A stretch of 64,000 nt of DNA from Eledone cirrhosa (lineage: Eukaryota). This document shows positions 9,978 through 63,050 of the stretch, in pieces. The notes under the pieces are model-generated. The model ran no database searches, had not been told where the DNA came from, and saw nothing but the letters and a program-made list of their open reading frames with translations. A program made the position numbers and the translations under genes. The DNA is taken from positions 46,810,001-46,874,000 of the forward strand of contig OZ024746.1 of NCBI GenBank assembly GCA_964016885.1, given 5' to 3'. The number at the start of each line of letters is the position of its first letter. Position 1 is the stretch's first letter.

Positions 9978-10001
9978 GTGCCTTTTCTCTTCACCACCAA
10001 C

Positions 10002-15237: not shown

Positions 15238-15583
15238 CGACCTTAGGTTTCGGGGTCCACTTATGGCCACCACCGTATAATGGAGGAGCCATTTCAATTT
15301 TGGCCTCGACCTTAGGTTTCGGGGTCCACTTATGGCCACCACCGTATAATGGAGGAGCCAATTCAATTTTGGCCTCGACCTTAGGTTTCGGGGTCCACTT
15401 ATGGCCACCACCGTATAATGGAGGAGCCATTTCAATACTGGCCTCGACCTTAGGTTTCGGGGTCCACTTATGGCCACCACCGTATAATGGAGGAGCCATT
15501 TCAATACTGGCCTCGACCTTAGGTTTCGGGGTCCACTTATGGCCACCACCGTATAATGGAGGACCCATTTCAATACTGGCCTC
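15238..15583 (-). repeat. Five tandem copies of a 69-bp unit made of the 3' part of a hammerhead ribozyme
   Basis: Units start at 15238, 15307, 15376, 15445 and 15514. The minus-strand unit ends GAAA-CC-TAA-GG-TC and is preceded once by GGCTC-CCGATGA (15584-15595). Confidence 0.85.
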
Positions 15584-16391: not shown

Positions 16392-16457
16392 TATTTTATC
16401 TGATGAGGACGTACTGATGAAATAGCTCAGTACCTCTGAAATATATATAATAAAATA
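16392..16457 (+). ncRNA. Minimal type I hammerhead ribozyme in a pLTR-like fragment
   Basis: TATTTTAT-CTGATGA-(GTACTGA..TCAGTAC hairpin)-GAAA-T-ATAT-A-TA-ATAAAATA, with an 8-bp perfect stem I. Confidence 0.8.
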
Positions 16458-16858: not shown

Positions 16859-18385
<1,527 letters not shown>

Positions 18386-18460
18386 GAGGCGATGAATTAG
18401 TTTTGCGAGGTTTTTTATATGAAATCGTGTGTCGAAACAGATATTGTTATATTTGGGGAG

Positions 18461-20295
18461 CTAATATAGCTAGCAACTACAGGATCTCCTACTTCCTCTC
18501 AATGGTTATACGCCCCATAATCAAGATGTCCCCAGATGTATGTGAAAGTACAGAGGACCTCCTCAGCAGAATCAGTGAGTGCAACAAAAACAGGAGCCTA
18601 TCCAACTGCATAATAGGCAGCATGGATGTGGTGTCACTGTACCCATCCATTAACATTGATTTTGCTGTGAAAAGATGTGTGGAGATGATCATTGAGAGTG
18701 AGGTGGAGTTCTGCGACGTCGACACAGACGAACTGGGCCTCCTACTTAGACTTACCTACGACACTGACTACCTAGACAGCCATGACCTTAGATGTTTCTG
18801 CCCTAGTAGACCTATAAGAGGTAGACCCCCCACCATAACCTCAATGGCTAAAAAGACTCCCATAGGAAGGTGGATTGGGTGGACCAAAGCTATACGGACC
18901 CCCCAAAACACTGATCAGGTAAGAAAAATGGTCGCACATGCAATAGGGGCTAGTATCAAAACTACCCTAAAGGTCCACATATTTAAGTTCAATGAGAAAA
19001 TCTACACCCAAAATGAGGGAGCAGCCATCGGCGTCAGCATAGCTGGTGATGTTGCCAACCTTTTCATGGTATGGTGGGAAAGGAGACTTAAAGATCTCCT
19101 TAATGAAAGCTCCATAGACCTCATCATGTACTCTCGTTATGTAGACGATATCAATATAGTTATAAGAACACCCCCACTAGAGAGCACTAACAAGTTTGAT
19201 TTAGAACGTAGCACGATGGAAAGCATCCAGCAGATAGCTAATTCCATACACCAGAGTATAACTGTAACTATAGACTTCCCTTCCAAACACCCTAAGAATA
19301 GACTACCTGTATTAGACACAGAACTCTGGATTAACACTATAGACGAGAGAGCCCAAATTCTCCACTCACACTATGCTAAACCCATGGCCTCCAAATACCT
19401 GATACTCAAAAACTCAGCAATGTCCAGTAGTGCTAAGTTTAATATTCTGATCGCAGATTTGGTACGAGTGATGAAGAATGTGTCCAGCATGTGCGACCCA
19501 ACAGAAATGGAAGGACACATCCAACACTTCATCAACCGCATGCAGTTCTCTGGCTACAACCAAAGAGACAGAGTCAGAGTATACGAAGGAGCCATGGAAA
19601 AGTATAAGACCCTCATAGAACTGGACATGAAAGGAATTTGCCCACTATACAGGAGCAAATCATGGAATAGCTTAGATAGGGCTAGACATAAGATAGGGAA
19701 GGCCACATCATGGTACGACAACCAGAGATATCAGAGTGTCATGTTTGTGGACGCCACCCCTGGAGGGAAAATAGCTAACCAGTGTAGAAAGGCCCTGAGA
19801 AAGACCCACTTAAAAATAAAGGTGGTAGAAAAGCCAGGAACCACCATAAAATCCCTGATCAGCAAAACCTACCCTTTTAAGAAAACCCACTGTACCAATA
19901 GGAAATGTATCATATGTAAGGTGAACCCCCGGATAAACTGTAAAACTAGAAACGTAGTCTATAGCATAAGATGTACAGAGGGTACTTGCAGAAACACGAC
20001 AACAACATACATAGGTGAGACAGCTCGTAGCATAGGTGAAAGGATAGACCAACACTGGGGGGAACTAAAAGGACGAAAAAACGGGTCAGTACTATACGAA
20101 CATGCTAGACAACAACATGACGGTAACATAGACAACATAGAAATTAGAATAATATCTAAACATAGGAATGACCCAGCAGATAGGCAAATCAGAGAGGCCA
20201 GTGAAATAGAAATTAGAAGACCAAAGCTAAACAGAAAGAATGAGTGGAACAACAACAACACCCAAACAAACAACACTGACCTAAGAGAAGTATAA
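18461..20295 (+). CDS. Penelope-like reverse transcriptase and GIY-YIG endonuclease (N-terminally truncated)
   Basis: MDVVSLYPSI, GAAIGVSIAGDVANLFM, RYVDDI, LPVLD, a Cys-rich linker and NVVYSIRC..YIGETARS..ER..QH. The first ~20 codons of the ORF track entry come from the inverted pLTR. Confidence 0.92.
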
Positions 20296-20564
20296 ATAAA
20301 TAAGTAAATTAAATTAAATAAAATAAGATAAATAAATACATACACAAGCACATAAACACACACTAGTCACCCAGCAGACACAACACTATACACACTAGTC
20401 ACACATCACACATAACACTATACACACACGCAAACGCATGCGCAAAGAAGACAAAATAAAATAAGATAAACAAACAAGCAAATAAATAAATAAATATATA
20501 GACAGACTGAACAAAAAAAAATGGCGTAGACATACAACACAACAGGAGGAACAATGAATATAAC

Positions 20565-20605
20565 ACCACTGACGATGTTGCAGATGTGCAACGAAAGATT
20601 TATGT
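20565..20605 (+). ncRNA. Hammerhead motif in the PLE pLTR (weak stem I)
   Basis: CTGACGA-T-GTTGCA-GATG-TGCAAC-GAAA-G-AT-T-TA. It is positionally homologous to the better-paired copy at 25423. Confidence 0.6.
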
Positions 20606-20856
20606 AAATTATGTAAACTATATATATATGTGTTTGTCTATATTGTATCTGTATTATTTTTGACCGCCGGTCAGTCAATGGCAACATTGAGGACCGAGTA
20701 AGTTAGATCGCAGATATATATATATAAAAGACAGCGAGAAGCGAAAACCAACCAAACAGTGAGTGTGTTCTGTTATTAATTCTGGCAATATTACGCAAAT
20801 ATGACCCTCCCCAAATATAACAATATATATATAGATATATATAGATATATATATAT

Positions 20857-21070: not shown

Positions 21071-21113
<43 letters not shown>

Positions 21114-21236
21114 GGAGGTGAGTTTTATTGTAGTACAATAAAGCAATGCAGATATCGGATAAGAAGCACTCTACAGTTTGTGGGACTGGAGTATGCATAA
21201 TATAAGATCAAAAGATGGTTAAAGGAGTTCAATATA

Positions 21237-21303
21237 TTTTATTATGCGCATTTCAAAAACAAACATCATCAAACAATAATATTTGTGTTTTCATCAGATA
21301 AAA
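21237..21303 (-). ncRNA. Minimal type I hammerhead ribozyme (inverted pLTR copy)
   Basis: Reverse complement of the motif at 23890-23954. Confidence 0.8.
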
Positions 21304-21408
21304 CAGGAGAACATGATATGAAGGCTAAAAAAACACTTGTTGATAGTGCAGTTTTAAATCAACATATGAAAAGTGGTTTTAGATTGATGTGTGATATTGG
21401 GAAAAAAA

Positions 21409-22395
21409 GCCGGCTATCCAGATAAAATCAAATATAATAAAGAAACAAATTCTAGGAAAACTTACAGTAGAATATTTAATCATAACCATTCCAATAATTT
21501 TAATAAAAGACCTAGATACAAAAACATAATCTGGTATAATGCTCCTTTCTCCATCTCTATTAATAACAATATTCCTAAATTATTTTTTAGTGCCTTAAAT
21601 AAATGCTTCCCTCCCTTACATATCTATAGTAAAATATTTAACAAACACACCATCAAATTTTCGTATTCTACATCCTCCAATATTTCCAACATCATTTCTA
21701 AACACAACAACAAAATATTAAATACTAAATCTCTTCCTTCCAATATTGAATCTCATAATAACAATAATAGTACTCCTGACGTCATTGTAAACCCTAGGCT
21801 AACTTCTGTAAACCCAAATGCAACGTCAAACACAACTTCGCTAAATGTTCATAATCCAACTCTAAATCAAGAAACTATTATTCCTATTATTCCTATCACA
21901 AACAACTTCTCCAATCCAATTCCTTCTATAGATAACACTAGATCACTCATTAATAATCTCTCTAATTGCAACTGCCGCATTAAAAATAAATGTCCTCTCA
22001 ACAACCATTGCCTCGATAAAAACTTAATTTATGAATGTAAAATTATAACTAGCACCAATTCCTTCACCTATTTTGGCTCCACTTCCACCTCTTTTAAAGC
22101 TCGTCTCTATAATCATCATTCATCTTTCAAATACAAACTTAAAAGAACTAACACTGCTCTCTCAGAACTCATATGGTCCTTAAAAGACAAAAACATTAAA
22201 TATAACATCTTTTGGAAAAAGATTTCTTCTGCATCCTCGAACTTGAACAGTTCTCTATCTAAAATCTGTAATCTCTGCCTAAATGAAAAATTTACCATTA
22301 TCTCTAACCTAGAATCCATAATAAATAGACGCTCGGATTTGTTTTCCATCTGCCTGCATAAATTCCATAGAACTTTTCACAAAGTATACAGTTAA
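21409..22395 (+). CDS. C-terminal part of a PLE protein (linker and GIY-YIG endonuclease)
   Basis: IIWYNAPFS, IFNKHTIKFSYS, CNCR..CPL..CL, LIYEC..TYFGST..FKARLYNH, CNLCLNEK. The RT core is missing. Confidence 0.85.
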   Translation, partial: AGYPDKIKYNKETNSRKTYSRIFNHNHSNNFNKRPRYKNIIWYNAPFSISINNNIPKLFFSALNKCFPPLHIYSKIFNKHTIKFSYSTSSNISNIISKHNNKILNTKSLPSNIESHNNNNSTPDVIVNPRLTSVNPNATSNTTSLNVHNPTLNQETIIPIIPITNNFSNPIPSIDNTRSLINNLSNCNCRIKNKCPLNNHCLDKNLIYECKIITSTNSFTYFGSTSTSFKARLYNHHSSFKYKLKRTNTALSELIWSLKDKNIKYNIFWKKISSASSNLNSSLSKICNLCLNEKFTIISNLESIINRRSDLFSICLHKFHRTFHKVYS

Positions 22396-22826
22396 TATTC
22401 AATTCTTTATCAATTTAGAATCTTTTCTCAAAGGCACATATACATACACCTCTTTAAAATATACCCATCTACCTTACTTTAAAGGGCATTATACACTCTA
22501 TAATACTCGTTTACTCATCCTATCTTCTCGTAAAACAATAACATTTGTTTTTGACATTTTGAATATTCATCCGCAATCATTATTATTTTTTTCCCTCTAT
22601 CATAAATCTTTTTAATCTCAATTTCATCCTTAATTTATTATTATATATTTTTTTAATATATACTCATATATTCTTTAAAATATACCCATCTACCTTACTT
22701 TAAAGGGCATTATACACTCTATAATACCCGTTTACTCATCACCCTCATTATATCTCCTCGTAAAACAATAACATTTGTTTTTGACATTTTGAGTATTCAT
22801 CCGCAATCATTATTATTTTTTCTCTC

Positions 22827-23024
22827 GGTGGAGAGGGATTGGCGGTGGATTGGCACTATCAGTAGAGGGTCGGACGCCATGCTTTCCAGCATAGTTACGT
22901 CCCTTTACAATCTGAGTTCAAATCCCGCCGAGGTTGACTTTGCCTTTCATCCTTACGGGGTCGATAAAATAAAGTACCAGTAATACACTGGGTAATTGCT
23001 GGCCTTGTGCCTAAAGTAGAAATA
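22827..23024 (+). mobile_element. tRNA-derived SINE with 18-bp TSD, nested in the PLE 3' region
   Basis: ATTATTATTTTTTCTCTC occurs at 22809-22826 and 23025-23042. A and B boxes present. Confidence 0.9.
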
Positions 23025-23889
23025 ATTATTATTTTTTCTCTCTATCATAAATCTTTTTAATCTCAATTTCATCCTTAATTTATTATTATTTTTTTCTCCC
23101 CATCAACGAACTCATTATTAATACATATGAATTCAATATAAAAACTTTAACTTCACATTATTTTTCTCAAATCCTTCTACACAAACTTTTTCTCTTTGCT
23201 AATTTTAAAATTCCTACATTTCTCCTTTTGACGTTAGAATATTCACCCACAATTATTATTTTTTTCTCTCTATCTCCATACATAATCTCCCTTCGTTATT
23301 TTTTTCTCTCTATCTCCATACATAATTTCCCTTCGTTAATTTTCAAATTCCTTTAATTTATACATTATCTTCCAACGGTTCCCAACCTCTCTATTTTTCA
23401 AATTCCTTTAATTTATACATTATCTTCCAACGGTTCCCAACCTCTCTATATTAAAACATTATATCTTTTTCTCAGTTATAAAAACTATCTCTTTCTCTCT
23501 ATCACCCATCTCTCCCTTTCACCTTCACTCTCATCTCTCCCTTTTTTTCATCCTTTCCACCCCACCCCCTCCCTAAATATAATATATTTTTTCCTCGCAC
23601 ATATCCTCCTTCGTTAATTTTCAAAATTTTTAATTTATACAGTATCTTCCAACGGTTTTCAACCCCTCTATATAAAATATATCTCCTCTCTGTTATAAAA
23701 ACTATCTCTTTCTCTCTATCACCCATCTCTCCCTCTCATCTCCTTCCCTTTTCATCCTTTCTCTCCCCCCCTCTCTAAATAAAATATTTTTCCCAATATC
23801 ACACATCAATCTAAAACCACTTTTCATATGTTGATTTAAAACTGCACTATCAACAAGTGTTTTTTTAGCCTTCATATCATGTTCTCCTG

Positions 23890-23954
23890 TTTTATCTGAT
23901 GAAACACAAATATTATTGTTTGATGATGTTTGTTTTGAAATGCGCATAATAAAA
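23890..23954 (+). ncRNA. Minimal type I hammerhead ribozyme in the PLE pLTR
   Basis: TTTTAT-CTGATGA-(long stem II region)-GAAA-TGCGCA-TA-ATAAAA, with a palindromic stem III. Confidence 0.82.
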
Positions 23955-23986
23955 TATATTGAACTCCTTTAACCATCTTTTGATCT

Positions 23987-25297
<1,311 letters not shown>

Positions 25298-31036: not shown

Positions 31037-31111
31037 TTAATATAGATGAGATTCTACAGGACTAGAACTGTTTTATTCTTTAGAAATCATCAGGAATCTC
31101 ATCTATATTAA
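31037..31111 (-). ncRNA. Hammerhead motif (G12A mutated) closed by an 18-bp perfect stem
   Basis: Minus strand: TTAATATAGATGAGATTC-CTGATGA-TTTCT-AA-AGAAT-AAAAC-AG..CT-GTA-GAATCTCATCTATATTAA. The homologue at about 53730-53780 retains GAAAC. Confidence 0.75.
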
Positions 31112-31185
31112 AACTTTTATACTCAGCTATGTATTGCGTACCTTACTTACTGTGGTTACCTCCGATTCAACCCGGAATAACGTAC

Positions 31186-42253: not shown

Positions 42254-42264
42254 CATATATATAT

Positions 42265-43031
42265 ATTAAGATAAGCAGAACAAGTAAAATTCAATCAATT
42301 TTTCAAAATACATTAAAAAATATAATATAAATATTTACCTCTTCTAGTGGCCCTTACTGATCAGTTTCGCTTTGTAAAACCTCATAAATCCGATGGATTT
42401 ATGATGGAAAACCAAAGCTCATCAGAGAAGCATTTTCCCTTCCTAGGGCTAAACGTCCCAGGAACGACAAAATATACAACCTCCTGCCAGCTAATAAAGG
42501 TCTGAAAGGTCAAAAAATTGACCCGTATGTAAACTGGACCGAAGTAAAAGCGAGAAAATCAAAGACTTGCTGTCTGCAATTACTACTAAAAAAATAGCAG
42601 CCAAGTAGAGCAACAGGGTTATTCTCAACGGACGGAGAAAAAGGTAGAAGTTAATATGTCCAGGGATACTAAGTACCCCTAGAAATACATAGGTTGTCTA
42701 TGATTCAAGGTTGTTCAATGGTGTTAATTTGATACACCAGAACTTTAATATTAAGATAAGCAGAACAAGTAAAATTCAATCAATTTTTCAAAATACATTA
42801 AAAAAACATTAAAAAATATAATATAAATATTTACCTCTTCTAGTGACCCTAGGTAAATATTTATATTATATTTTTTAATGTATTTTGAAAAATTGATTGA
42901 ATTTTACTTGTTCTGCTTATCTTAATATTAAAGTTCTGGTGTATCAAATTAACACCATTGAACAACCTTGAATCATAGACAACCTATGTATTTCTAGGGG
43001 TACCTAGTATCCCTGGACATATTAACTTCTA
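42265..43031 (-). mobile_element. Short non-coding PLE-like unit: partial tandem (485-bp period) plus inverted segment
   Basis: 42265-42350 is repeated at about 42750-42848. About 42645-42836 is inverted at 42852-43031, with internal deletions. Contains a hammerhead and is flanked by (TA)n. Confidence 0.8.
42351..42429 (-). ncRNA. Type I hammerhead ribozyme with long stem II
   Basis: Minus strand: TTCT-CTGATGA-GCTTTG...TCATAAATCC-ATC-GGATTTATGA...CAAAGC-GAA-ACTGATCAGT-A-AGGG. Confidence 0.82.
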
Positions 43032-43076: not shown

Positions 43077-43166
<90 letters not shown>

Positions 43167-43167
<1 letters not shown>

Positions 43168-43640
43168 TTGTAATATAATGAAACGAAATTTCATTTCTCA
43201 CTCTTAGTACGGCACTTACTTAAATGTAAGTATGTATGTATACGTACATACATATATGTATACGTACATACATATATATACATACAGGTACACATATATA
43301 TATGTACGTATCAGTTTAGCAAACGTTTATTATAACGCCCGCTTTGTCCGTTTGTAAACAAGCGAACAGCCTGATTTATGCCATACGGTGTTAAGGCAAC
43401 ACGTCACCTTTTTGTTCAACACTGACACAGGAACGATGTACTAGTTTCAAGCTTGTTAGCTATCATCAGCACCGTATACCCTTCTGCCAGATAGTTGAAC
43501 GTTCGAAAGTATATACTTTCCTTATGAAAATAACGGCTGAGCAGCCTAATTTGCATATCGAGTGAGTTCAGTCCGCCAGGCGTACCGAAAACGATAAGTT
43601 GTAATATAATGAAACGAAATTTCATTTCTCACTCTTAGTA
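43167..43640 (-). mobile_element. Short non-coding unit with ~42-bp direct terminal repeat and a hammerhead
   Basis: gttgtaatataatgaaacgaaatttcatttctcactcttagta occurs at 43167 and 43598. Confidence 0.7.
43433..43475 (-). ncRNA. Minimal type I hammerhead ribozyme
   Basis: Minus strand: ACGGTG-CTGATGA-TAGC-TAACAA-GCTT-GAAAC-TA-GTA-CATCGT. Stem I is 6 bp and stem III is the palindrome ACTAGT. Confidence 0.85.
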
Positions 43641-43727
43641 TTGAGTACCTTACTTACTGTGGTTACCTCCGATTCAACTCGGAATAACGTATATATATAC
43701 ATACATACTATATATATATATATATAC

Positions 43728-46606
43728 AAATTGGGATAAATGCTCTGAAATAGCGATATATATGTGAATATAGACATAGAATATTCGAAAATATTCTGTA
43801 TGTTTATAATAAACATTTTGAAGACCTAATCGCTATAGAATAGAATACGTCACGTATTACAATTAGATTCTCGATAAAAGCAAGGGAAGTAATCTACGCG
43901 TTTCATTCTCGTTAGAAATCATCAGGACTACATATCCAGTGCTTTTATCGAGAATGACACAGCTAGAGACTTATAGAATACTTAGCTGTGTACAGGAACT
44001 GGTTTGAAAGAGCGGTTGCCGGTCCGGCAGAAATTAGAAATTGGGATAAATGCTCTGAAATAGCGATATATATGTGAATATAGACATAGAATATTCGAAA
44101 ATATTCTGTATGTTTATAATAAACATTTTGAAGACCTAATCGCTATAGAATAGAATACGTCACGTATTACAATTAGATTCTCGATAAAAGCAAGGGAAGT
44201 AATCTACGCGTTTCATTCTCGTTAGAAATCATCAGGACTACATATCCAGTGCTTTTATCGAGAATGACACAGCTAGAGACTTATAGAATACTTAGCTGTG
44301 TACAGGAACTGGTTTGAAAGAGCGGTTGCCGGTCCGGCAGAAATTAGAAATTGGGATAAATGCTCTGAAATAGCGATATATATGTGAATATAGACATAGA
44401 ATATTCGAAAATATTCTGTATGTTTATAATAAACATTTTGAAGACCTAATCGCTATAGAATAGAATACGTCACGTATTACAATTAGATTCTCGATAAAAG
44501 CAAGGGAAGTAATCTACGCGTTTCATTCTCGTTAGAAATCATCAGGACTACATATCCAGTGCTTTTATCGAGAATGACACAGCTAGAGACTTATAGAATA
44601 CTTAGCTGTGTACAGGAACTGGTTTGAAAGAGCGGTTGCCGGTCCGGCAGAAATTAGAAATTGGGATAAATGCTCTGAAATAGCGATATATATGTGAATA
44701 TAGACATAGAATATTCGAAAATATTCTGTATGTTTATAATAAACATTTTGAAGACCTAATCGCTATAGAATAGAATACGTCACGTATTACAATTAGATTC
44801 TCGATAAAAGCAAGGGAAGTAATCTACGCGTTTCATTCTCGTTAGAAATCATCAGGACTACATATCCAGTGCTTTTATCGAGAATGACACAGCTAGAGAC
44901 TTATAGAATACTTAGCTGTGTACAGGAACTGGTTTGAAAGAGCGGTTGCCGGTCCGGCAGAAATTAGAAATTGGGATAAATGCTCTGAAATAGCGATATA
45001 TATGTGAATATAGACATAGAATATTCGAAAATATTCTGTATGTTTATAATAAACATTTTGAAGACCTAATCGCTATAGAATAGAATACGTCACGTATTAC
45101 AATTAGATTCTCGATAAAAGCAAGGGAAGTAATCTACGCGTTTCATTCTCGTTAGAAATCATCAGGACTACATATCCAGTGCTTTTATCGAGAATGACAC
45201 AGCTAGAGACTTATAGAATACTTAGCTGTGTACAGGAACTGGTTTGAAAGAGCGGTTGCCGGTCCGGCAGAAATTAGAAATTGGGATAAATGCTCTGAAA
45301 TAGCGATATATATGTGAATATAGACATAGAATATTCGAAAATATTCTGTATGTTTATAATAAACATTTTGAAGACCTAATCGCTATAGAATAGAATACGT
45401 CACGTATTACAATTAGATTCTCGATAAAAGCAAGGGAAGTAATCTACGCGTTTCATTCTCGTTAGAAATCATCAGGACTACATATCCAGTGCTTTTATCG
45501 AGAATGACACAGCTAGAGACTTATAGAATACTTAGCTGTGTACAGGAACTGGTTTGAAAGAGCGGTTGCCGGTCCGGCAGAAATTAGAAATTGGGATAAA
45601 TGCTCTGAAATAGCGATATATATGTGAATATAGACATAGAATATTCGAAAATATTCTGTATGTTTATAATAAACATTTTGAAGACCTAATCGCTATAGAA
45701 TAGAATACGTCACGTATTACAATTAGATTCTCGATAAAAGCAAGGGAAGTAATCTACGCGTTTCATTCTCGTTAGAAATCATCAGGACTACATATCCAGT
45801 GCTTTTATCGAGAATGACACAGCTAGAGACTTATAGAATACTTAGCTGTGTACAGGAACTGGTTTGAAAGAGCGGTTGCCGGTCCGGCAGAAATTAGAAA
45901 TTGGGATAAATGCTCTGAAATAGCGATATATATGTGAATATAGACATAGAATATTCGAAAATATTCTGTATGTTTATAATAAACATTTTGAAGACCTAAT
46001 CGCTATAGAATAGAATACGTCACGTATTACAATTAGATTCTCGATAAAAGCAAGGGAAGTAATCTACGCGTTTCATTCTCGTTAGAAATCATCAGGACTA
46101 CATATCCAGTGCTTTTATCGAGAATGACACAGCTAGAGACTTATAGAATACTTAGCTGTGTACAGGAACTGGTTTGAAAGAGCGGTTGCCGGTCCGGCAG
46201 AAATTAGAAATTGGGATAAATGCTCTGAAATAGCAATATATATGTGAATATAGACATAGAATATTCGAAAATATTCTGTATGTTTATAATAAACATTTTG
46301 AAGACCTAATCGCTATAGAATAGAATACGTCACGTATTACAATTAGATTCTCGATAAAAGCAAGGGAAGTAATCTACGCGTTTCATTCTCGTTAGAAATC
46401 ATCAGGACTACATATCCAGTGCTTTTATCGAGAATGACACAGCTAGAGACTTATAGAATACTTAGCTGTGTACAGGAACTGGTTTGAAAGAGCGGTTGCC
46501 GGTCCGGCAGAAATTAGAAATTGGGATAAATGCTCTGAAATAGCGATATATATGTGAATATAGACATAGAATATTCGAAAATATTCTGTATGTTTATAAT
46601 AAACAT
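43728..46606 (-). mobile_element. 310-bp hammerhead tandem array, left block (9.3 units, 9 ribozymes on the minus strand)
   Basis: ttgggataaa recurs at 43731+310k (k=0-9). The first ribozyme is at 43889-43931. Confidence 0.93.
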
Positions 46607-49600
46607 AAGTATTCTATAAGTCTCTAGCTGTGTCATTCTCGATAAAAGCACTGGATATGTAGTCCTGATGATTTCTAACGAGAATGAAACGCGTAGATTA
46701 CTTCCCTTGCTTTTATCGAGAATCTAATTGTAATACGTGACGTATTCTATTCTATAGCGATTAGGTCTTCAAAATGTTTATTATAAACATACAGAATATT
46801 TTCGAATATTCTATGTCTATATTCACATATATATCGCTATTTCAGAGCATTTATCCCAATTTCTAATTTCTGCCGGACCGGCAACCGCTCTTTCAAACCA
46901 GTTCCTGTACACAGCTAAGTATTCTATAAGTCTCTAGCTGTGTCATTCTCGATAAAAGCACTGGATATGTAGTCCTGATGATTGCTAACGAGAATGAAAC
47001 GCGTAGATTACTTCCCTTGCTTTTATCGAGAATCTAATTGTAATACGTGACGTATTCTATTCTATAGCGATTAGGTCTTCAAAATGTTTATTATAAACAT
47101 ACAGAATATTTTCGAATATTCTATGTCTATATTCACATATATATCGCTATTTCAGAGCATTTATCCCAATTTCTAATTTCTGCCGGACCGGCAACCGCTC
47201 TTTCAAACCAGTTCCTGTACACAGCTAAGTATTCTATAAGTCTCTAGCTGTGTCATTCTCGATAAAAGCACTGGATATGTAGTCCTGATGATTTCTAACG
47301 AGAATGAAACGCGTAGATTACTTCCCTTGCTTTTATCGAGAATCTAATTGTAATACGTGACGTATTCTATTCTATAGCGATTAGGTCTTCAAAATGTTTA
47401 TTATAAACATACAGAATATTTTCGAATATTCTATGTCTATATTCACATATATATCGCTATTTCAGAGCATTTATCCCAATTTCTAATTTCTGCCGGACCG
47501 GCAACCGCTCTTTCAAACCAGTTCCTGTACACAGCTAAGTATTCTATAAGTCTCTAGCTGTGTCATTCTCGATAAAAGCACTGGATATGTAGTCCTGATG
47601 ATTTCTAACGAGAATGAAACGCGTAGATTACTTCCCTTGCTTTTATCGAGAATCTAATTGTAATACGTGACGTATTCTATTCTATAGCGATTAGGTCTTC
47701 AAAATGTTTATTATAAACATACAGAATATTTTCGAATATTCTATGTCTATATTCACATATATATCGCTATTTCAGAGCATTTATCCCAATTTCTAATTTC
47801 TGCCGGACCGGCAACCGCTCTTTCAAACCAGTTCCTGTACACAGCTAAGTATTCTATAAGTCTCTAGCTGTGTCATTCTCGATAAAAGCACTGGATATGT
47901 AGTCCTGATGATTTCTAACGAGAATGAAACGCGTAGATTACTTCCCTTGCTTTTATCGAGAATCTAATTGTAATACGTGACGTATTCTATTCTATAGCGA
48001 TTAGGTCTTCAAAATGTTTATTATAAACATACAGAATATTTTCGAATATTCTATGTCTATATTCACATATATATCGCTATTTCAGAGCATTTATCCCAAT
48101 TTCTAATTTCTGCCGGACCGGCAACCGCTCTTTCAAACCAGTTCCTGTACACAGCTAAGTATTCTATAAGTCTCTAGCTGTGTCATTCTCGATAAAAGCA
48201 CTGGATATGTAGTCCTGATGATTTCTAACGAGAATGAAACGCGTAGATTACTTCCCTTGCTTTTATCGAGAATCTAATTGTAATACGTGACGTATTCTAT
48301 TCTATAGCGATTAGGTCTTCAAAATGTTTATTATAAACATACAGAATATTTTCGAATATTCTATGTCTATATTCACATATATATCGCTATTTCAGAGCAT
48401 TTATCCCAATTTCTAATTTCTGCCGGACCGGCAACCGCTCTTTCAAACCAGTTCCTGTACACAGCTAAGTATTCTATAAGTCTCTAGCTGTGTCATTCTC
48501 GATAAAAGCACTGGATATGTAGTCCTGATGATTGCTAACGAGAATGAAACGCGTAGATTACTTCCCTTGCTTTTATCGAGAATCTAATTGTAATACGTGA
48601 CGTATTCTATTCTATAGCGATTAGGTCTTCAAAATGTTTATTATAAACATACAGAATATTTTCGAATATTCTATGTCTATATTCACATATATATCGCTAT
48701 TTCAGAGCATTTATCCCAATTTCTAATTTCTGCCGGACCGGCAACCGCTCTTTCAAACCAGTTCCTGTACACAGCTAAGTATTCTATAAGTCTCTAGCTG
48801 TGTCATTCTCGATAAAAGCACTGGATATGTAGTCCTGATGATTTCTAACGAGAATGAAACGCGTAGATTACTTCCCTTGCTTTTATCGAGAATCTAATTG
48901 TAATACGTGACGTATTCTATTCTATAGCGATTAGGTCTTCAAAATGTTTATTATAAACATACAGAATATTTTCGAATATTCTATGTCTATATTCACATAT
49001 ATATCGCTATTTCAGAGCATTTATCCCAATTTCTAATTTCTGCCGGACCGGCAACCGCTCTTTCAAACCAGTTCCTGTACACAGCTAAGTATTCTATAAG
49101 TCTCTAGCTGTGTCATTCTCGATAAAAGCACTGGATATGTAGTCCTGATGATTTCTAACGAGAATGAAACGCGTAGATTACTTCCCTTGCTTTTATCGAG
49201 AATCTAATTGTAATACGTGACGTATTCTATTCTATAGCGATTAGGTCTTCAAAATGTTTATTATAAACATACAGAATATTTTCGAATATTCTATGTCTAT
49301 ATTCACATATATATCGCTATTTCAGAGCATTTATCCCAATTTCTAATTTCTGCCGGACCGGCAACCGCTCTTTCAAACCAGTTCCTGTACACAGCTAAGT
49401 ATTCTATAAGTCTCTAGCTGTGTCATTCTCGATAAAAGCACTGGATATGTAGTCCTGATGATTTCTAACGAGAATGAAACGCGTAGATTACTTCCCTTGC
49501 TTTTATCGAGAATCTAATTGTAATACGTGACGTATTCTATTCTATAGCGATTAGGTCTTCAAAATGTTTATTATAAACATACAGAATATTTTCGAATATT

Positions 49601-52600
49601 CTATGTCTATATTCACATATATATCGCTATTTCAGAGCATTTATCCCAATTTCTAATTTCTGCCGGACCGGCAACCGCTCTTTCAAACCAGTTCCTGTAC
49701 ACAGCTAAGTATTCTATAAGTCTCTAGCTGTGTCATTCTCGATAAAAGCACTGGATATGTAGTCCTGATGATTTCTAACGAGAATGAAACGCGTAGATTA
49801 CTTCCCTTGCTTTTATCGAGAATCTAATTGTAATACGTGACGTATTCTATTCTATAGCGATTAGGTCTTCAAAATGTTTATTATAAACATACAGAATATT
49901 TTCGAATATTCTATGTCTATATTCACATATATATCGCTATTTCAGAGCATTTATCCCAATTTCTAATTTCTGCCGGACCGGCAACCGCTCTTTCAAACCA
50001 GTTCCTGTACACAGCTAAGTATTCTATAAGTCTCTAGCTGTGTCATTCTCGATAAAAGCACTGGATATGTAGTCCTGATGATTTCTAACGAGAATGAAAC
50101 GCGTAGATTACTTCCCTTGCTTTTATCGAGAATCTAATTGTAATACGTGACGTATTCTATTCTATAGCGATTAGGTCTTCAAAATGTTTATTATAAACAT
50201 ACAGAATATTTTCGAATATTCTATGTCTATATTCACATATATATCGCTATTTCAGAGCATTTATCCCAATTTCTAATTTCTGCCGGACCGGCAACCGCTC
50301 TTTCAAACCAGTTCCTGTACACAGCTAAGTATTCTATAAGTCTCTAGCTGTGTCATTCTCGATAAAAGCACTGGATATGTAGTCCTGATGATTTCTAACG
50401 AGAATGAAACGCGTAGATTACTTCCCTTGCTTTTATCGAGAATCTAATTGTAATACGTGACGTATTCTATTCTATAGCGATTAGGTCTTCAAAATGTTTA
50501 TTATAAACATACAGAATATTTTCGAATATTCTATGTCTATATTCACATATATATCGCTATTTCAGAGCATTTATCCCAATTTCTAATTTCTGCCGGACCG
50601 GCAACCGCTCTTTCAAACCAGTTCCTGTACACAGCTAAGTATTCTATAAGTCTCTAGCTGTTTCATTCTCGATAAAAGCACTGGATATGTAGTCCTGATG
50701 ATTTCTAACGAGAATGAAACGCGTAGATTACTTCCCTTGCTTTTATCGAGAATCTAATTGTAATACGTGACGTATTCTATTCTATAGCGATTAGGTCTTC
50801 AAAATGTTTATTATAAACATACAGAATATTTTCGAATATTCTATGTCTATATTCACATATATATCGCTATTTCAGAGCATTTATCCCAATTTCTAATTTC
50901 TGCCGGACCGGCAACCGCTCTTTCAAACCAGTTCCTGTACACAGCTAAGTATTCTATAAGTCTCTAGCTGTGTCATTCTCGATAAAAGCACTGGATATGT
51001 AGTCCTGATGATTTCTAACGAGAATGAAACGCGTAGATTACTTCCCTTGCTTTTATCGAGAATCTAATTGTAATACGTGACGTATTCTATTCTATAGCGA
51101 TTAGGTCTTCAAAATGTTTATTATAAACATACAGAATATTTTCGAATATTCTATGTCTATATTCACATATATATCGCTATTTCAGAGCATTTATCCCAAT
51201 TTCTAATTTCTGCCGGACCGGCAACCGCTCTTTCAAACCAGTTCCTGTACACAGCTAAGTATTCTATAAGTCTCTAGCTGTGTCATTCTCGATAAAAGCA
51301 CTGGATATGTAGTCCTGATGATTTCTAACGAGAATGAAACGCGTAGATTACTTCCCTTGCTTTTATCGAGAATCTAATTGTAATACGTGACGTATTCTAT
51401 TCTATAGCGATTAGGTCTTCAAAATGTTTATTATAAACATACAGAATATTTTCGAATATTCTATGTCTATATTCACATATATATCGCTATTTCAGAGCAT
51501 TTATCCCAATTTCTAATTTCTGCCGGACCGGCAACCGCTCTTTCAAACCAGTTCCTGTACACAGCTAAGTATTCTATAAGTCTCTAGCTGTGTCATTCTC
51601 GATAAAAGCACTGGATATGTAGTCCTGATGATTTCTAACGAGAATGAAACGCGTAGATTACTTCCCTTGCTTTTATCGAGAATCTAATTGTAATACGTGA
51701 CGTATTCTATTCTATAGCGATTAGGTCTTCAAAATGTTTATTATAAACATACAGAATATTTTCGAATATTCTATGTCTATATTCACATATATATCGCTAT
51801 TTCAGAGCATTTATCCCAATTTCTAATTTCTGCCGGACCGGCAACCGCTCTTTCAAACCAGTTCCTGTACACAGCTAAGTATTCTATAAGTCTCTAGCTG
51901 TGTCATTCTCGATAAAAGCACTGGATATGTAGTCCTGATGATTTCTAACGAGAATGAAACGCGTAGATTACTTCCCTTGCTTTTATCGAGAATCTAATTG
52001 TAATACGTGACGTATTCTATTCTATAGCGATTAGGTCTTCAAAATGTTTATTATAAACATACAGAATATTTTCGAATATTCTATGTCTATATTCACATAT
52101 ATATCGCTATTTCAGAGCATTTATCCCAATTTCTAATTTCTGCCGGACCGGCAACCGCTCTTTCAAACCAGTTCCTGTACACAGCTAAGTATTCTATAAG
52201 TCTCTAGCTGTGTCATTCTCGATAAAAGCACTGGATATGTAGTCCTGATGATTGCTAACGAGAATGAAACGCGTAGATTACTTCCCTTGCTTTTATCGAG
52301 AATCTAATTGTAATACGTGACGTATTCTATTCTATAGCGATTAGGTCTTCAAAATGTTTATTATAAACATACAGAATATTTTCGAATATTCTATGTCTAT
52401 ATTCACATATATATCGCTATTTCAGAGCATTTATCCCAATTTCTAATTTCTGCCGGACCGGCAACCGCTCTTTCAAACCAGTTCCTGTACACAGCTAAGT
52501 ATTCTATAAGTCTCTAGCTGTGTCATTCTCGATAAAAGCACTGGATATGTAGTCCTGATGATTTCTAACGAGAATGAAACGCGTAGATTACTTCCCTTGC

Positions 52601-53645
52601 TTTTATCGAGAATCTAATTGTAATACGTGACGTATTCTATTCTATAGCGATTAGGTCTTCAAAATGTTTATTATAAACATACAGAATATTTTCGAATATT
52701 CTATGTCTATATTCACATATATATCGCTATTTCAGAGCATTTATCCCAATTTCTAATTTCTGCCGGACCGGCAACCGCTCTTTCAAACCAGTTCCTGTAC
52801 ACAGCTAAGTATTCTATAAGTCTCTAGCTGTGTCATTCTCGATAAAAGCACTGGATATGTAGTCCTGATGATTTCTAACGAGAATGAAACGCGTAGATTA
52901 CTTCCCTTGCTTTTATCGAGAATCTAATTGTAATACGTGACGTATTCTATTCTATAGCGATTAGGTCTTCAAAATGTTTATTATAAACATACAGAATATT
53001 TTCGAATATTCTATGTCTATATTCACATATATATCGCTATTTCAGAGCATTTATCCCAATTTCTAATTTCTGCCGGACCGGCAACCGCTCTTTCAAACCA
53101 GTTCCTGTACACAGCTAAGTATTCTATAAGTCTCTAGCTGTGTCATTCTCGATAAAAGCACTGGATATGTAGTCCTGATGATTTCTAACGAGAATGAAAC
53201 GCGTAGATTACTTCCCTTGCTTTTATCGAGAATCTAATTGTAATACGTGACGTATTCTATTCTATAGCGATTAGGTCTTCAAAATGTTTATTATAAACAT
53301 ACAGAATATTTTCGAATATTCTATGTCTATATTCACATATATATCGCTATTTCAGAGCATTTATCCCAATTTCTAATTTCTGCCGGACCGGCAACCGCTC
53401 TTTCAAACCAGTTCCTGTACACAGCTAAGTATTCTATAAGTCTCTAGCTGTGTCATTCTCGATAAAAGCACTGGATATGTAGTCCTGATGATTTCTAACG
53501 AGAATGAAACGCGTAGATTACTTCCCTTGCTTTTATCGAGAATCTAATTGTAATACGTGACGTATTCTATTCTATAGCGATTAGGTCTTCAAAATGTTTA
53601 TTATAAACATACAGAATATTTTCGAATATTCTATGTCTATATTCA
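46606..53645 (+). mobile_element. 310-bp hammerhead tandem array, right block (22.7 units, 23 ribozymes on the plus strand)
   Basis: attctataag recurs at 46611+310k (k=0-22). The unit is the reverse complement of the left-block unit. Confidence 0.93.
46659..46701 (+). ncRNA. Minimal type I hammerhead ribozyme (representative of 32 copies)
   Basis: GTAGTC-CTGATGA-TTTCT-AACG-AGAAT-GAAAC-GC-GTA-GATTAC, with predicted cleavage after 46695. Stem I is extended by ATTCTCGATAAAAGCA/TGCTTTTATCGAGAAT. Confidence 0.9.
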
Positions 53646-53649
53646 TATA

Positions 53650-53780
53650 TATATACGTTATTCCGAGTTGAATCGGAGGTAACCACAGTATGTAAGGTAC
53701 TCAATACATTGCAGAGTATAAAAGTTTTAATATAGATGAGATTCTACAGTACTAGAACTGTTTCATTCTTTAGAAATCAT
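53650..53780 (-). mobile_element. pLTR-like fragment with 5'-truncated hammerhead
   Basis: Minus strand ATGA-TTTCT-AA-AGAAT-GAAAC-AGT..ACT-GTA-GAATCTC plus tail. Same family as 31037-31190 and 43638-43695. Confidence 0.75.
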
Positions 53781-54288: not shown

Positions 54289-57200
54289 GTATGTCTGGGT
54301 TTGACATTAAACTACATCCAGTGGCAAGGCTCCAGTTCGGGAGTTCAGATGTGGGGAATGTGGAGTTACCCCTTAGTTGTCATGACTCCCAGGTCTGCCC
54401 TGGCCCGGGGTGGTAGTACCTGTTAGGGCTCCATTTATGGGTTAAATAACTACCTTATTCAAGTGGCGCCGGTAAGGTATTGTCAGCCATTGAAAAGAAA
54501 TATGGAGAGTCGATCTAACAGCACTAGGGTTAGAGCCCCTAATTACACTGTCAAGGAGCAGCCTGGTCGTTATGACTCTGCTGGCTTAGAGCCACAGAGA
54601 GGGCCAGTGGATGATGGATCAGCTGTCTCTGAGACAAATATAAAGAATGCAGTTTTGTCCTGCAGGAGAGCCATCAAAATGGGCACTTTGAATGTGAGGA
54701 CTATTCGAACGCTGGAGAAGAGAGAGGAGTTGGGACATCTGTTCGAGGAGAGTGGTATACAGATACTTGCGATCCAAGAACACAGGATTCTACACGATGA
54801 GCCCGTGAGGAGTGTGATGATCGGGAGGAAGAGCCAGCTCATCATTACATCGACAGTGAAGAACACAACAAATGCTGCAGTGGGAGGAGTGGGTTTTGTG
54901 TTCAGTGCAAAAACCAATCTGTTGGTGAGGGAAATAATGCCTATCTCCCCGCGAGTGTTGAGGGTGACCTTCAATGGAAACCCAAGACTGACAGTCATCT
55001 CAGCCTATAGTCCAACCGAGGGGGACAGTGATGTGAATGCCGAGGAGTTCCATGAGGAGGTGTGTAGAGCTGTCAACACCACTCAGGCACACAATATCCT
55101 GCTTGCTTGTTTTGGGGGACTTCAATGCACATCTGAGTAAGGAGGGCAGTGAAGATCCTGGTACTTCCATAACAACACCAACTGAAATGGAAGACTACTG
55201 AGAGACACCCTGCTGGAGGCGAACTTGATGGCGACCAACCTAAGGTTTAGGAAGAATCTGGGGAAGATGTGGACCTACATCTCAGATATGCACCTGTCCA
55301 AGTCCCAGATTGATTTCATTCTGGTGAGGAAAAAGTGGCGGAATAGTGTTCTGAACACGGAACCATACAGCTATTTCAGTACACTGGGTAGTGACCACCG
55401 GCTTGTTATGAGTGAGGTCCGCGTGAGCTTAAGAAAGAGCAAGGCTCAGCCCCGGAGAACAATCTATGACTGGGGAGCTTTCAAGGAAGATGATAAGCTA
55501 CAGGAGAGGTTCACAGTGGAAGTGAGAAACAGGTTTAGTGCTCTGTGTGGAGAGTCAGAGGAGAGAGAGATTGGATGGACTGAGGAGAGTGTGACGAGGA
55601 GGTACGGGCACTTCACCAATGCAGTGGCGAAAGCAAGTGAAACCCTTGGTGCCGAGGAAAAAGAGCAAAGGGAAGCACCTCAGCTCTGCAAACCCAAAAG
55701 TGTGTGCAGCCAGAGAACACCTGAAAGCTGCCAGGGACCAATTCTATGCTGATCCTACGGAGGAGAGGATGGAGACTGTGGAGGTGATGAGGGAAGAGCT
55801 CTGTACCGCTTACACTGAGGTCAGAGAGGAGGCACTGATAGAGAAGATCAGAAGTCTGGAGAGAGCGGTTGACAGATCTGGATGTAAGGAGAGCTGGATG
55901 ATCATCAACGAGATCACAGGGAGGAAGAAAAGGTGTTCGAGTCAGATCCAGGGAACGGGACCCGAGGATAGGAAGAGGAAATGGCTAGACCATTTTAGGA
56001 CCCTACTAGGAGAGCCACCCTCCACAGCCCAGAGCACTGGGGAGATCAGGCGGCTGTTTGAGGAACTGGATGTTGAGACAGAGCCCTTCACCAGAGAGGA
56101 GCTTCAGAGAGCCAAGAAGAAGATCAAGGAGGGCAAGGCTCATGGAGAAGATGGAGTGGCATCAGAGGTGATGAAGAGGTGTGATTTTGATGATATCATC
56201 CTGGGGTTATGTAACGGGGCACTGGAGAAAGGAGTTGCCCCGAATCAGTGGAGGATCAGTAACATCGTCCCAGTGCCAAAGAAGGGAGATCTCTCTAACA
56301 CCAACAACTACCGGGGGATCTCACTGACGTCACTTGTGGCAAAGACCCTCAACAGGATGATTCTTAACAGGATCCAGCCTGAGATGGAGAAGAAGCTCAG
56401 GGACAACCAGAACGGCTTCAGAGAGGGTAGATCAACCACCAGTCACATCCTGATGCTGAGGAGGATATTAGAGGGAGCTAGAGCAAAGTGCCTTCCTGCG
56501 GTCATGGTTTTCATTGACTTTAGGAAGGCCTTTGATTCTGTGGACCGTTACTGCCTGATGAAGATCTTACAGGCTTATGGAATCCCCAAGAGGATAGTGG
56601 ACCTGATATCACTGCTCTACACCAACACCAAAGCCCAAGTCATTACACCTGATGGGATGACAGAGTTCTTTGAGATACTGGCTGGAGTGCTCCAGGGAGA
56701 TACATTGGCTCCCTACCTTTTTGTCATCGTAGTGGACTATTGTATGCGCCTTGCACTGGAGAAACACCAGGACTCTGGCTTTACTGTAGCACCGGCTCAG
56801 AGCAGGAGAGTTGGGGCGAAAAAGGTATCGGATGCTGAATTTGCCGACGACATAGTTTTGGTGACAAATACAGTGAAGGAGGCAGAGGATTTGATGCGGG
56901 AGGTTGAGACTGTGTCGATGAGTGTGGGGCTGAGAATGAATGAGACTAAAACAAAATATCTGGTAGAGAATGTTGAGAAGCCAGAGGGGATCACTAATGT
57001 AGGCGGGAAGCCGCTGGAATTGGTTGAGGACTTCCTGTATTTGGGAGCAAATATTGGGAATACGGAAGATGATGTGGTTGAGAGGAAGAGCAAGGCCTGG
57101 GCGGCGTGTCACAGCTTGAGATCGGTGTGGAAGTCGGACCTTCGTAGAGACCTGAAAATCCGCCTCTTCATTGCTGTAGTGGAGTCTGTGCTGCTGTATG

Positions 57201-57608
57201 GGTCTGAGACTTGGACACTGACCAAGAGACTCACTCAGATGGTGGATGGGTGCTACACGAGAATGCTGAGGATGGCTCTGAACATTAATCAGTATACACT
57301 GAGGATGAAAAACTCAGAGCTGTATGGGAGCATCCCAAAAGTCAGCTCAAAAGTGACACAGAGGAGACTGAGGTTGGCTGGACATGCTCACCGACATCCA
57401 GAGTTGACATTGCACTCAGTGCTCCTTTGGGAGCCCCTGCATGGACACACTAGAAGAGGAAGACCAAGGTTAACATATGTTGATGCCCTAAGGACAGACA
57501 CTGGTCTGTTGGAGATGCAGGATATGGCAGCGATAATGAGGGACAGAGACCGCTGGAGAGAACTCGTCCATGGATCTCGGGAATTTTACCCGCCTTAGAT
57601 AGATAGAT
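54288..57608 (+). mobile_element. Near full-length RTE-clade LINE with frameshifts and a (TAGA) tail
   Basis: A single APE-RT gene is split over 54463-55140, 55225-55752 and 55619-57598. The stop codon runs into TAGATAGATAGA. Confidence 0.9.
54463..57598 (+). pseudogene. Disrupted RTE APE endonuclease-reverse transcriptase
   Basis: GTLNVRT, ILAIQE, SAYSPT, QIDFIL, SDH, YRGISL, DFRKAFDSV, GVLQGDTLAP, FADD, LLYGSETW, RLAGH, RGRPRLTY. At least two frameshifts. Confidence 0.9.
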
Positions 57609-62000: not shown

Positions 62001-63050
62001 TCTTTTTTTCTATTTTAGTTATATATGATGGTATTTTTAGTGGTGTTTTGTTCTTGTTAATATCTCTGCTATCACCAAGATAATGCTTCACTGTCATTGC
62101 TAAGGCATATAAACAGGCGTTGATTTGCCAAAATGTTGGGCTTTTTATCCGTCGTAATTATTCATCCCCTATTTCGTCAATAACACGTATTATTTCATTA
62201 TTTGGTTTTTTATTCACCATTGTCATTTTAACACGTTCAGCCAGAGAGATATTTATACATGAGTTAATTTCTCTATGGAAGATTTCGTTGTGGGAAATTT
62301 TCAATTGTTTATACTTTTGATTATCATTATTGATAGTATTTTCCACAACAGTCGAGGTAGACTCGGATGGTATACGTGGTGTCACATTTATTCGATTATT
62401 ATTATTATTTCTTCGATTATTATTATTATCGATAGTGTTTTCCCCAGCATTCGAGGTAGACTTAGATGGTACAGTGTCAAGTTTCTTACAGGCATAGTTG
62501 TTTCAAGGTGCTGTTCGACCTGGCTGCTAGGAAGTCTAGTAGCATGGCGATGTGTAACACGTGTTGTTGATTCCATGTCTGTTGTGCAATTAATAATATT
62601 TATCTTATTTTTACGTTCAACAAACGTCGCTTGGCGTAATTATTTCGCTGTGAAATAATTTAGCTCTGGGTGCATTTCGTCCCAGTGTAGCTTCATTCTA
62701 TTCAAATAGCCAATGGAGGGATTGTTTTTTGCCATTTTATAACAATTAAATAAATCATTATTAAGTTCGCAACTCCAAGAGAAATGCTATTTATAATTTC
62801 GGTTTCTTCTGTAGCTACAACTAAATAAAGTTTGATTACCTTCTTTGTTATTTGTCTTCGATACTTCTTTAATTTTTTTGTTGATGTTGTGTTCAGCCAT
62901 GCTGTTTGTAGCAAATCCTTGTAAAATGAATTATGTATTTAGTCGGATATCTCTACGAATTGGGTGTCTTCAGAAGGGATAGTTAGAAGAACAACCAGTT
63001 ATTCAACCTGGCTGTAGTTGTGGCATTACTGTCGGAGATAGTATTCATCT
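59020..63050 (-). pseudogene. Decayed R4/Dong-like non-LTR element (RT plus restriction-like endonuclease)
   Basis: Fragments include KTPGRDMI, WLDYKKAFDSVPH, FVDD, YRYLGI, CRLC..EDITHVISSC, RHD and RPDIMIWD..VVEISCP. Many frameshifts. Both ends are approximate. Confidence 0.85.

Follow-up and report, generated by a model that had tools for sequence, protein, structure and literature searches.

Retrozymes of metazoa that lack long terminal repeats (LTRs) have been described as tandem repeats of about 300 bp with low G+C content and a type I hammerhead ribozyme, and have been proposed to be non-autonomous derivatives of Penelope-like elements (PLEs) (PMC7229834; bioRxiv 10.64898/2026.07.22.740005). 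Their origin from PLEs has been argued from distribution and phylogeny (bioRxiv 10.64898/2026.07.22.740005), circular RNAs have been reported for other retrozymes (PMC7229834), and the origin of the arrays is debated, the candidates being local crossover and reverse transcription of circles. Here we describe an array of such repeats in a stretch of 64,000 nucleotides of the Eledone cirrhosa genome (GenBank assembly GCA_964016885.1, contig OZ024746.1, positions 46,810,001 to 46,874,000 of the forward strand), which is referred to as the window and in whose coordinates positions are given. The repeats, designated family A, lie in two head-to-head arms that end at two different sites of the unit, S1 and S2, next to TA-rich sequence. 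The window array is an ordinary member of a large young family, and the finding is the family-wide rule by which an S1 end is paired with an S2 end.

For PLEs themselves, insertions are known in which an inverted, 5′-truncated copy stands head-to-head with the element and a tail of 30–40 bp is often present at one end only (PMC8557442; PMC3846280), with a bias towards (TA)n targets in the Neptune, Naiad and Hydra clades (PMC8557442). In the published view the tail is optional and derives from endonuclease resolution, and the inversion derives from self-priming, which has been proposed to occur on an antisense template (PMC3846280). Ribozyme-made circles have been put forward as templates for PLE complementary DNA (cDNA) of more than unit length, giving head-to-tail tandems (PMC4209133), and the origin of the tandem and inverted structures and of the tail has been named as an open question (PMC8557442). 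The PAc Poseidon PLE, studied in vitro and predicted to act as a dimer, cuts AT-rich DNA on both strands and extends both, its reverse transcriptase (RT) starting at two adjacent internal sites separated by an interval that equals the tail (PMC11167929).

Structure of the array and its repeat unit

Tandem Repeats Finder, applied to the 64-kb window, splits the 310-bp repeat array into two blocks (43728–46606 and 46606–53662), the left of which is the reverse complement of the right, the orientation flipping once, at 46606. The original prediction, made from the letters of this DNA alone, had placed a single flip at about 46606 with one shared base, and the assembly bears this out, the arms starting at unit positions 169 and 1 (Table 1). 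It had also let the left arm terminate on a hairpin, which is indeed found at 46590–46606, and had the blocks pointing outwards; the type I hammerhead at unit positions 54–96 fixes the sense of the unit, so that the arms are head-to-head and do point outwards. Its statement that both blocks end in (TA)n holds well for the left block, which abuts about 38 nt of TA-rich sequence; the right block meets TA too, but merely about (TA)5. At this right-hand S1 end the last C of the unit's TA stretch reads T. Units of the window array differ from the majority unit at 0–1 positions each, with five minor variants overall, and the array is the longest among 53 family A loci; later exchange, or the assembly itself, may have inflated its copy number.

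Family A resembles the metazoan retrozymes in being a non-coding tandem of about 300 bp with one type I hammerhead per unit and a short palindromic helix III. Its period of 310 bp and its G+C content of about 35 % fall within the limits for non-LTR retrozymes (150–450 bp, less than 50 % G+C), and no stop-to-stop frame of at least 100 amino acids occurs in 43728–53654. The hammerhead core, helix I, helix II with a U-U base and the palindromic helix III were all read by script, and cleavage is predicted after unit position 90. A single Rfam riboswitch match in the window (E-value, 4.7) was dismissed as chance. The unit folds more strongly than shuffled sequence (z −3.1), and a three-hairpin domain at unit 148–236 is kept in a relative that is about 70 % identical (A2, below), with both partners altered in 2 of 25 pairs; this domain is, by inference only, a candidate protein-binding element. 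The hairpin on which the left arm ends is a weak candidate at best for the cause of the junction: its edge (unit 169) holds 4 of 68 other junction ends, which gives P=0.004 for a named position and P=0.62 for the best of all positions, and it is at most a weak stop site.

Pairing of the ends across family A

Exact matches of a hammerhead 21-mer number 15,043 in the 3.0-Gb genome, as dispersed copies. S1 ends (unit position about 229, then TA) occur 1,307 times genome-wide and S2 ends (unit 255–262, then TA) 804 times on the forward strand, the reverse-strand S2 count being inflated by overlapping matches; the family is thus put at more than 1,300 ends of either type, from over a thousand near-identical insertions. 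The pairing of these ends was assessed in 30 loci chosen blind to their ends, made up of 14 loci with at least 96 % identity found by unit similarity and the first 16 of the 21-mer listing. Two head-to-head arms are present at 22 of the 30; 19 of these have one S1 and one S2 end, none has two S1 ends, none has two S2 ends, and three have one odd end. If ends were drawn independently at 50:50, 19 mixed pairs out of 19 would have P of about 2×10−6 (our own arithmetic). A held-out set of 16 consecutive S1 ends comprises two single arms and 14 two-armed loci, in which the partner is S2 in 13, runs out of the region in one, and is never S1. Ten S2 ends without a listed partner gave nine two-armed loci, every one with S1, and six S1 ends without a partner turned out to be single arms, one with a 7-nt S2 stub. 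Neighbours on opposite strands are head-to-head in 56 of 57 cases (69 loci), the exception sitting within one complex locus. The lone S1–S1 and the lone S2–S2 divergent pair in coordinate listings were discarded, as each spans two separate loci, and 24 loci picked as S1–S2 pairs (L066–L089) were excluded as evidence for the pairing rule.

A TA run lies within 16 nt of 100 of the 104 3′ ends, compared with 20 % of random window positions. Recurrent inversion and TA association of other insertions, both of which the original prediction had named as checks, are found. The interval between S1 and S2, 26–33 nt, is present on one arm only and matches the 30–40-bp tail at one end of PLEs. Flank-to-flank matches were seen at 4 of 52 loci, all short or from other repeats; a target-site duplication would be hidden in the TA runs.

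Comparison of the two arms

Among loci with both arms of at least 150 bp, the majority haplotype of the two arms is identical at 45 of 47, as against 10 % of between-locus pairs, and at each of the two exceptional loci the arms differ by one base. Arm-fixed variants are common to both arms in 64 of 65 cases, including all 14 rare ones, whereas minor variants are mirrored between arms in only 6 of 69 testable cases, four of which are one alignment artefact. At 18 of 50 loci the S1 arm exceeds the S2 arm by over a unit, at 17 the reverse holds, and at 42 each arm is more than one unit long. Since either arm can be the longer, neither is a fold-back product of its partner.

The 5′ ends of the arms are spread round the unit (chi-square P 0.10), and they neither cluster where the ribozyme cuts (2 of 106, 3.8 expected) nor, in the S2 arms, gather at S1 (2 of 50, 3.4 expected). 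When 53 junctions were walked by exact match, 36 proved to be overlapping or blunt, with a median overlap of 2 nt and with microhomology of at least 2 nt at 24 of the 36, against 18 % by chance (P 2×10−10); the other 17 show a gap, which in some is a short templated insert and in some merely a nearby variant that halts the exact walk. Two junctions recur at pairs of loci with different haplotypes, unit 257/36 at L068 and L095 and unit 30/103, inside a 16-nt stem, at L054 and L064, which suggests preferred joins. At the outer ends, the last C of the UA-rich stretch of S1 is T, the target-type base, in 22 arms and C in 14, as expected if a (TA)n primer pairs across S1; S2 offers only 2–3 nt of pairing with the target. 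Individual loci have features of their own: L080 has undergone a local duplication, in which the complete two-armed insertion, junction included, recurs at a distance of about 3 kb; L074 has 272 bp of unrelated sequence between its arms at the junction (L074:1799–2070); and in the left arm of L093 the haplotype switches part-way, from 56G to 56A.

Coding Penelope-like elements

Two coding PLEs lie in the window, and the inverted 5′ piece in (TA)n context that had been claimed for both is present in both. In PLE1 an inverted 78-bp arm (18383–18460, minus strand), which contains the end of the pseudo-LTR (pLTR) plus the tail, faces an S1 arm at 18454–20826 (plus strand); in PLE2 the inverted arm (21111–21406, minus strand) copies the element's 3′ end near 23787–23990 and extends about 85 nt further. 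A 190-bp repeat is inserted in this PLE2 copy at 22842–23032. By their linker motifs, defined as in PMC8557442, PLE1 looks Neptune-like and PLE2 Hydra-like, the PLE1 motifs having been seen by eye in a frame of 1217 amino acids. Neptune-like PLEs are marked by an RT, a CX2–5CxxC linker, a C-terminal GIY-YIG domain and a hammerhead in the pLTR. Pfam scores of PLE domains are below cut-off or absent for PLE1 and PLE2, and a PDB sequence search with PLE1 gave two weak RT matches only.

Both families are young. PLE1 has 16,857 candidate matches, of which 149 were scored, at 99–100 % identity, with many 1217-amino-acid frames, which include an Asn-rich stretch, and a tandem period of 4.1 kb; multi-unit head-to-head arrays of this 4.1-kb unit were also seen (G000:C1:307332000-307349900, L138 and L139). 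S1 is paired with S2 at all 14 PLE1 loci compared, namely 12 found from divergent RT matches, one multi-unit locus and the window copy. Over overlaps of 2.3–4.1 kb the two arms differ by 0.48 per kb, compared with 2.77 per kb between loci (12 loci), and one locus carries arms of 1.65 and about 2.45 units. The PLE2 family has 60,391 candidates, frames of 821 amino acids and a period of about 3.9 kb, and S1 and S2 are paired at the three loci compared.

Other hammerhead families

A2 (L044–L049), with a unit of about 350 bp and about 70 % identity to family A, has S1 and S2 at the same positions as family A. The idea that A2 is the pLTR of a PLE fragment in L046 was rejected, since the two are separated by a different repeat and A2 forms tandems of its own. 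In family B, 17 of 20 loci that had been selected for an S2 arm also have an S1 arm, and in family C S1 and S2 are paired at five of seven loci. Family B (L106–L125) consists of tiny two-armed elements whose junctions, unlike those of family A, cluster just upstream of the hammerhead core, and its helix II resembles that of family A; in two of its members, L109 and L118, the upstream sequence is longer and different and may lead to a parent PLE.

Table 1. Positions in the window of the family A array and of related elements

Feature	Position	Strand	Details
Left arm, retrozyme family A	43728..46606	−	9.3 units of 310 bp; 5′ start unit 169; 3′ end unit 257 = site S2, tailed
Right arm, retrozyme family A	46606..53654	+	22.7 units; 5′ start unit 1; 3′ end unit 220–229 = site S1, untailed
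Head-to-head junction	46606..46606	.	1-nt overlap (T)
7-bp hairpin, unit 169–185	46590..46606	−	first of three-hairpin domain, unit 148–236
Type I hammerhead, first right-arm unit (one per unit)	46659..46701	+	predicted cut after 46695; motif read by script
TA-rich target run, left end, about 38 nt	43690..43727	.	
Short run of about (TA)5, right end	53645..53655	.	overlaps the unit's own TA stretch
PLE1 (RT and GIY-YIG, Neptune-like linker)	18383..20826	+	inverted 78-bp S2 arm and 5′-truncated S1 arm
PLE2 (GIY-YIG, Hydra-like linker)	21111..23990	+	inverted S2 arm 21111–21406 and 5′-truncated S1 arm
Family B two-armed insertion	31037..31183	.	S1 arm left, S2 arm right
Family C hammerhead element, about 1.1 units	43163..43640	−	S2 end at (TA)n; head-to-head with the B piece
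Family B hammerhead element 3′ end, facing array	43638..43689	+	earlier separate insertion
Family B element, single arm, facing array from right	53656..53779	−	S2 end

Proposed mechanism of insertion

We interpret the array as the product of one two-ended retrotransposition of a non-coding hammerhead RNA, family A, by a Penelope-like RT/GIY-YIG protein, a reading to which we give a probability of roughly 0.68. That the insertion is of PLE type is hardly in doubt, in view of the recurrent head-to-head arms, the TA ends and the one-sided tail of 26–33 nt, with both PLEs and two other hammerhead families alike, and in this the proposal of integration by PLE machinery is well supported. That two primers were used on one haplotype is likely, and that both sat on one circular molecule is probable, if less firmly so. 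For the process as a whole we lean slightly towards an asymmetric double rolling circle, in which PLEs and their retrozyme passengers would be copied by two RT active sites from two fixed, different starting sites on one circular RNA, each primed by one end of a double-strand cut in (TA)n, and the two products would then be joined head-to-head. The original prediction had offered a template switch or twin priming; the use of two primers fits better, and the arm lengths and the unmirrored variants speak against a template switch or fold-back.

In such a scheme a tandem transcript would cleave itself and circularize to a 310-nt RNA, as published retrozymes suggest. The PLE protein would cut both strands of a (TA)n run, the target being indicated by the ends of the arrays and two-strand cutting by the published in vitro work. 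Reverse transcription of one template would then start from both 3′ ends, from one of them at S2 (unit 255–262, with only 2–3 nt of pairing) and from the other at S1 (about unit 220–229, by pairing with the UA-rich stretch of the RNA); the pairing rule and the single haplotype are observed, and both primers would probably sit on the same molecule. Each RT would circle the template several times with strand displacement, in keeping with multi-unit arms whose 5′ ends are spread round the unit, and the two cDNA 3′ ends would be joined through 0–5 nt of microhomology or short templated inserts to give one head-to-head junction. The junction would thus be the meeting point of two cDNAs, and the PLE 'tail' would be the interval between S1 and S2.

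Several points weigh against this reading. At eight of the 30 end-blind loci there is a single arm (at two of these the sequence is interrupted by a contig end or a gap), and the three two-armed loci with one odd end (L039, L043 and L050) depart from the pairing. In the window itself, at 43163–43699, a family C arm (minus strand) is joined head-to-head to a family B arm (plus strand) with a 3-nt overlap and S2 at both ends, which breaks the rule; this join needs a later deletion between neighbouring insertions, or two templates. The spacing of S1 and S2 differs between families (26–33 nt in A, 43–59 in PLE1, about 55–60 in C, about 70 in B and about 85 in PLE2). The lengths of the two arms are weakly correlated (rho 0.30, P 0.036), and some minor variants recur within arms (69G three times in the right arm in the window, a variant pair twice in the right arm of L073), which points to later unequal exchange or conversion, so that arm length does not purely reflect RT processivity. 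A shared haplotype is compatible with a single circle, but also with two monomers, or a linear multimer, derived from one transcript. Rfam returned no hammerhead match in the window and no match there at gathering score, the Pfam RVT_1 score of the window PLE1 was below cut-off, and no Pfam family was found in the full 1217-amino-acid frame.

The identity of the helper is a further point of this kind. When family A was compared with PLE1, PLE2 and the PLE 3′ regions present in about 0.8 Mb of analysed loci, no shared pLTR sequence emerged, and the hammerhead core, shared with family C, is the only family A match to the pLTRs compared. The similarity of 3′ ends to PLE pLTRs, which the original prediction had suggested looking for, thus did not appear in these loci, and of its claim that the array links the parasite to its helper, PLE-type integration stands, whereas no helper was found among the PLEs compared.

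Alternative explanations

An artefact of the assembly or of chimeric reads is highly improbable as the source of the junction at 46606. Near-perfect long inverted arrays are difficult to assemble, and no contig of runs X1, X2 or X4 crosses 46606, which also counts against our reading; of 12.8 million raw Hi-C reads of run X23 none falls on this stretch of the window, and these reads are therefore no test of the junction. The flanks carry a 62-bp inverted match, which might have passed for a target duplication, but this is two family B ends, with a mismatch, facing the same TA run, and flank-to-flank matches occur at few loci. A fold-back chimera would be a mirror image, whereas these arms start at units 169 and 1 and end differently. 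The X1 contigs contain two other head-to-head joints with 5-nt overlaps, each in a single contig, at depths of 22 and 40 and with 22 and 24 letters on the shorter side (the run may be related to the source of the assembly), and in seven X1 contigs the unit breaks off at S1 and is followed by a T-rich stretch and then by TA. Junctions and haplotypes specific to each locus, taken with the X1 joints, make an artefact unlikely. We note that X2 and X4, which have other organism codes, each yielded one 340-nt contig consisting of a single unit with the family majority allele, which could reflect trace DNA, a shared family or transfer. Still less credible is a tandem satellite grown by local unequal crossover and inverted later by recombination or repair: local amplification of retrozyme tandems has been discussed (bioRxiv 10.64898/2026.07.22.740005) and the recurrent minor variants show some later exchange, but exactly one head-to-head junction at 22 of 30 loci, with fixed paired TA ends on many contigs, would be left unexplained.

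A single priming event, with one arm then copied from its partner after fold-back, self-priming or a template switch onto the fresh cDNA or onto antisense RNA, would yield both the head-to-head orientation and the single haplotype, and a few junctions do lie in self-complementary stems (the 16-nt stem of L054 and L064, and the 169 hairpin with its four ends). A copy cannot exceed its template, however, and either arm may be the longer, the S1 arm in the window by 13 units; minor variants are unmirrored, and the junctions are spread round the unit with a median overlap of 2 nt. We regard this explanation as very unlikely. Two-ended PLE priming on two sister RNAs that derive from one precursor and sit in one asymmetric complex, or on two different units of a linear multimeric transcript, would account for the head-to-head arms, the TA ends and the shared haplotype with no need for two RTs that chase each other 26–33 nt apart round a circle. 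RNA dimers are plausible, since type I hammerheads with a weak helix III act as dimers (PMC4209133). A symmetric dimer should nevertheless yield S1+S1 or S2+S2 insertions, seen in 0 of 19 and 0 of 13 cases; with a linear multimer as template, S2 arms would be expected to terminate where the second primer sits or where the ribozyme has cut, and ends are enriched at neither place; and a trans-acting protein with many source loci should often mix haplotypes, which differ at 2 of 47 loci by one base each. Priming on two sister RNAs or on a linear multimer, without a double rolling circle on one molecule, is the main rival but rather unlikely, and we retain two-ended priming on one circular RNA as the preferred reading.

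Comparison with described insertions

Two-ended priming is familiar from L1 elements, in which the second DNA end primes on the same RNA to give a head-to-head junction with short microhomology. In L1 twin priming the position of the second site varies and the two parts are free of overlap, whereas here that position is constant, poly(A) is absent and each arm runs through the same sequence many times over. Short microhomology at the junction is shared with L1 (24 of 36 junctions); a first cDNA that halts at the second primer is not (2 of 50, 3.4 expected, with both arms above one unit at 42 of 50 loci). Repeated copying of one sequence in both arms means that the process is not twin priming of the L1 kind.

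The texts on metazoan retrozymes, as far as accessible, are without inverted arrays, paired fixed ends or (TA)n targets, whereas here most arrays are two-armed: the accessible text of PMC7229834 has no match for inverted, orientation or microsatellite, and that of bioRxiv 10.64898/2026.07.22.740005 none that is relevant. The part of PMC9977147 available likewise holds nothing on inverted insertions. Compared with the PLE insertions described in the accessible literature, one arm here, and never both, carries the tail at each canonical two-armed locus, and in family A both arms are multi-unit and the element is non-coding. The circle hypothesis of PMC4209133 covers, in the text available, head-to-tail tandems only, as opposed to the two arms found here. 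The PAc assay measured linear templates in bulk, and its accessible text neither reports a difference between strands nor relates the sites to inverted copies or circles (PMC11167929), whereas the genomic data imply a pairing of the two sites within a single insertion, where S1 also pairs with the target. As (TA)n is symmetric, either strand can take either site, which would fit the lack of a strand difference in the bulk assay. The inverted copy and the one-sided tail are already described for PLEs; the strict pairing and the retrozyme case are new, as far as the literature searched goes, since no inverted retrozyme arrays, strict S1/S2 pairing or two-ended rolling-circle insertion was found in it (mostly open-access papers).

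Other features of the window

Three further non-LTR retrotransposon-like frames lie at 8199–13439, 54427–57598 and 59243–62658; their motifs suggest tentative labels of L1/Tx1-like, RTE-like and restriction-endonuclease type. A small element with nested direct and inverted repeats occupies 42263–42991 and has a hammerhead-like core at about 42425 (minus strand), and other such cores, outside the families studied, are at 16400, 38160, 38395 and 41509. A 69-bp repeat is present in five copies, 98 % identical, at 15238–15583.

Implications

The strict rule, by which a short end and a tailed end share one haplotype and either arm may be the longer, disfavours the published idea of self-priming, and it offers structural evidence, beyond co-occurrence and phylogeny, that retrozymes insert as PLEs do. 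It also predicts the outcome of a single-molecule version of the existing in vitro assay, for which the young PLE1 and PLE2 families, with their many open frames, are candidate enzymes. If true, a double rolling circle would explain the tandem pLTRs, the inverted 5′ copy and the one-sided tail of PLEs, and would produce hammerhead arrays of 30 units in a single step, which suggests that satellite-like arrays can arise whole.

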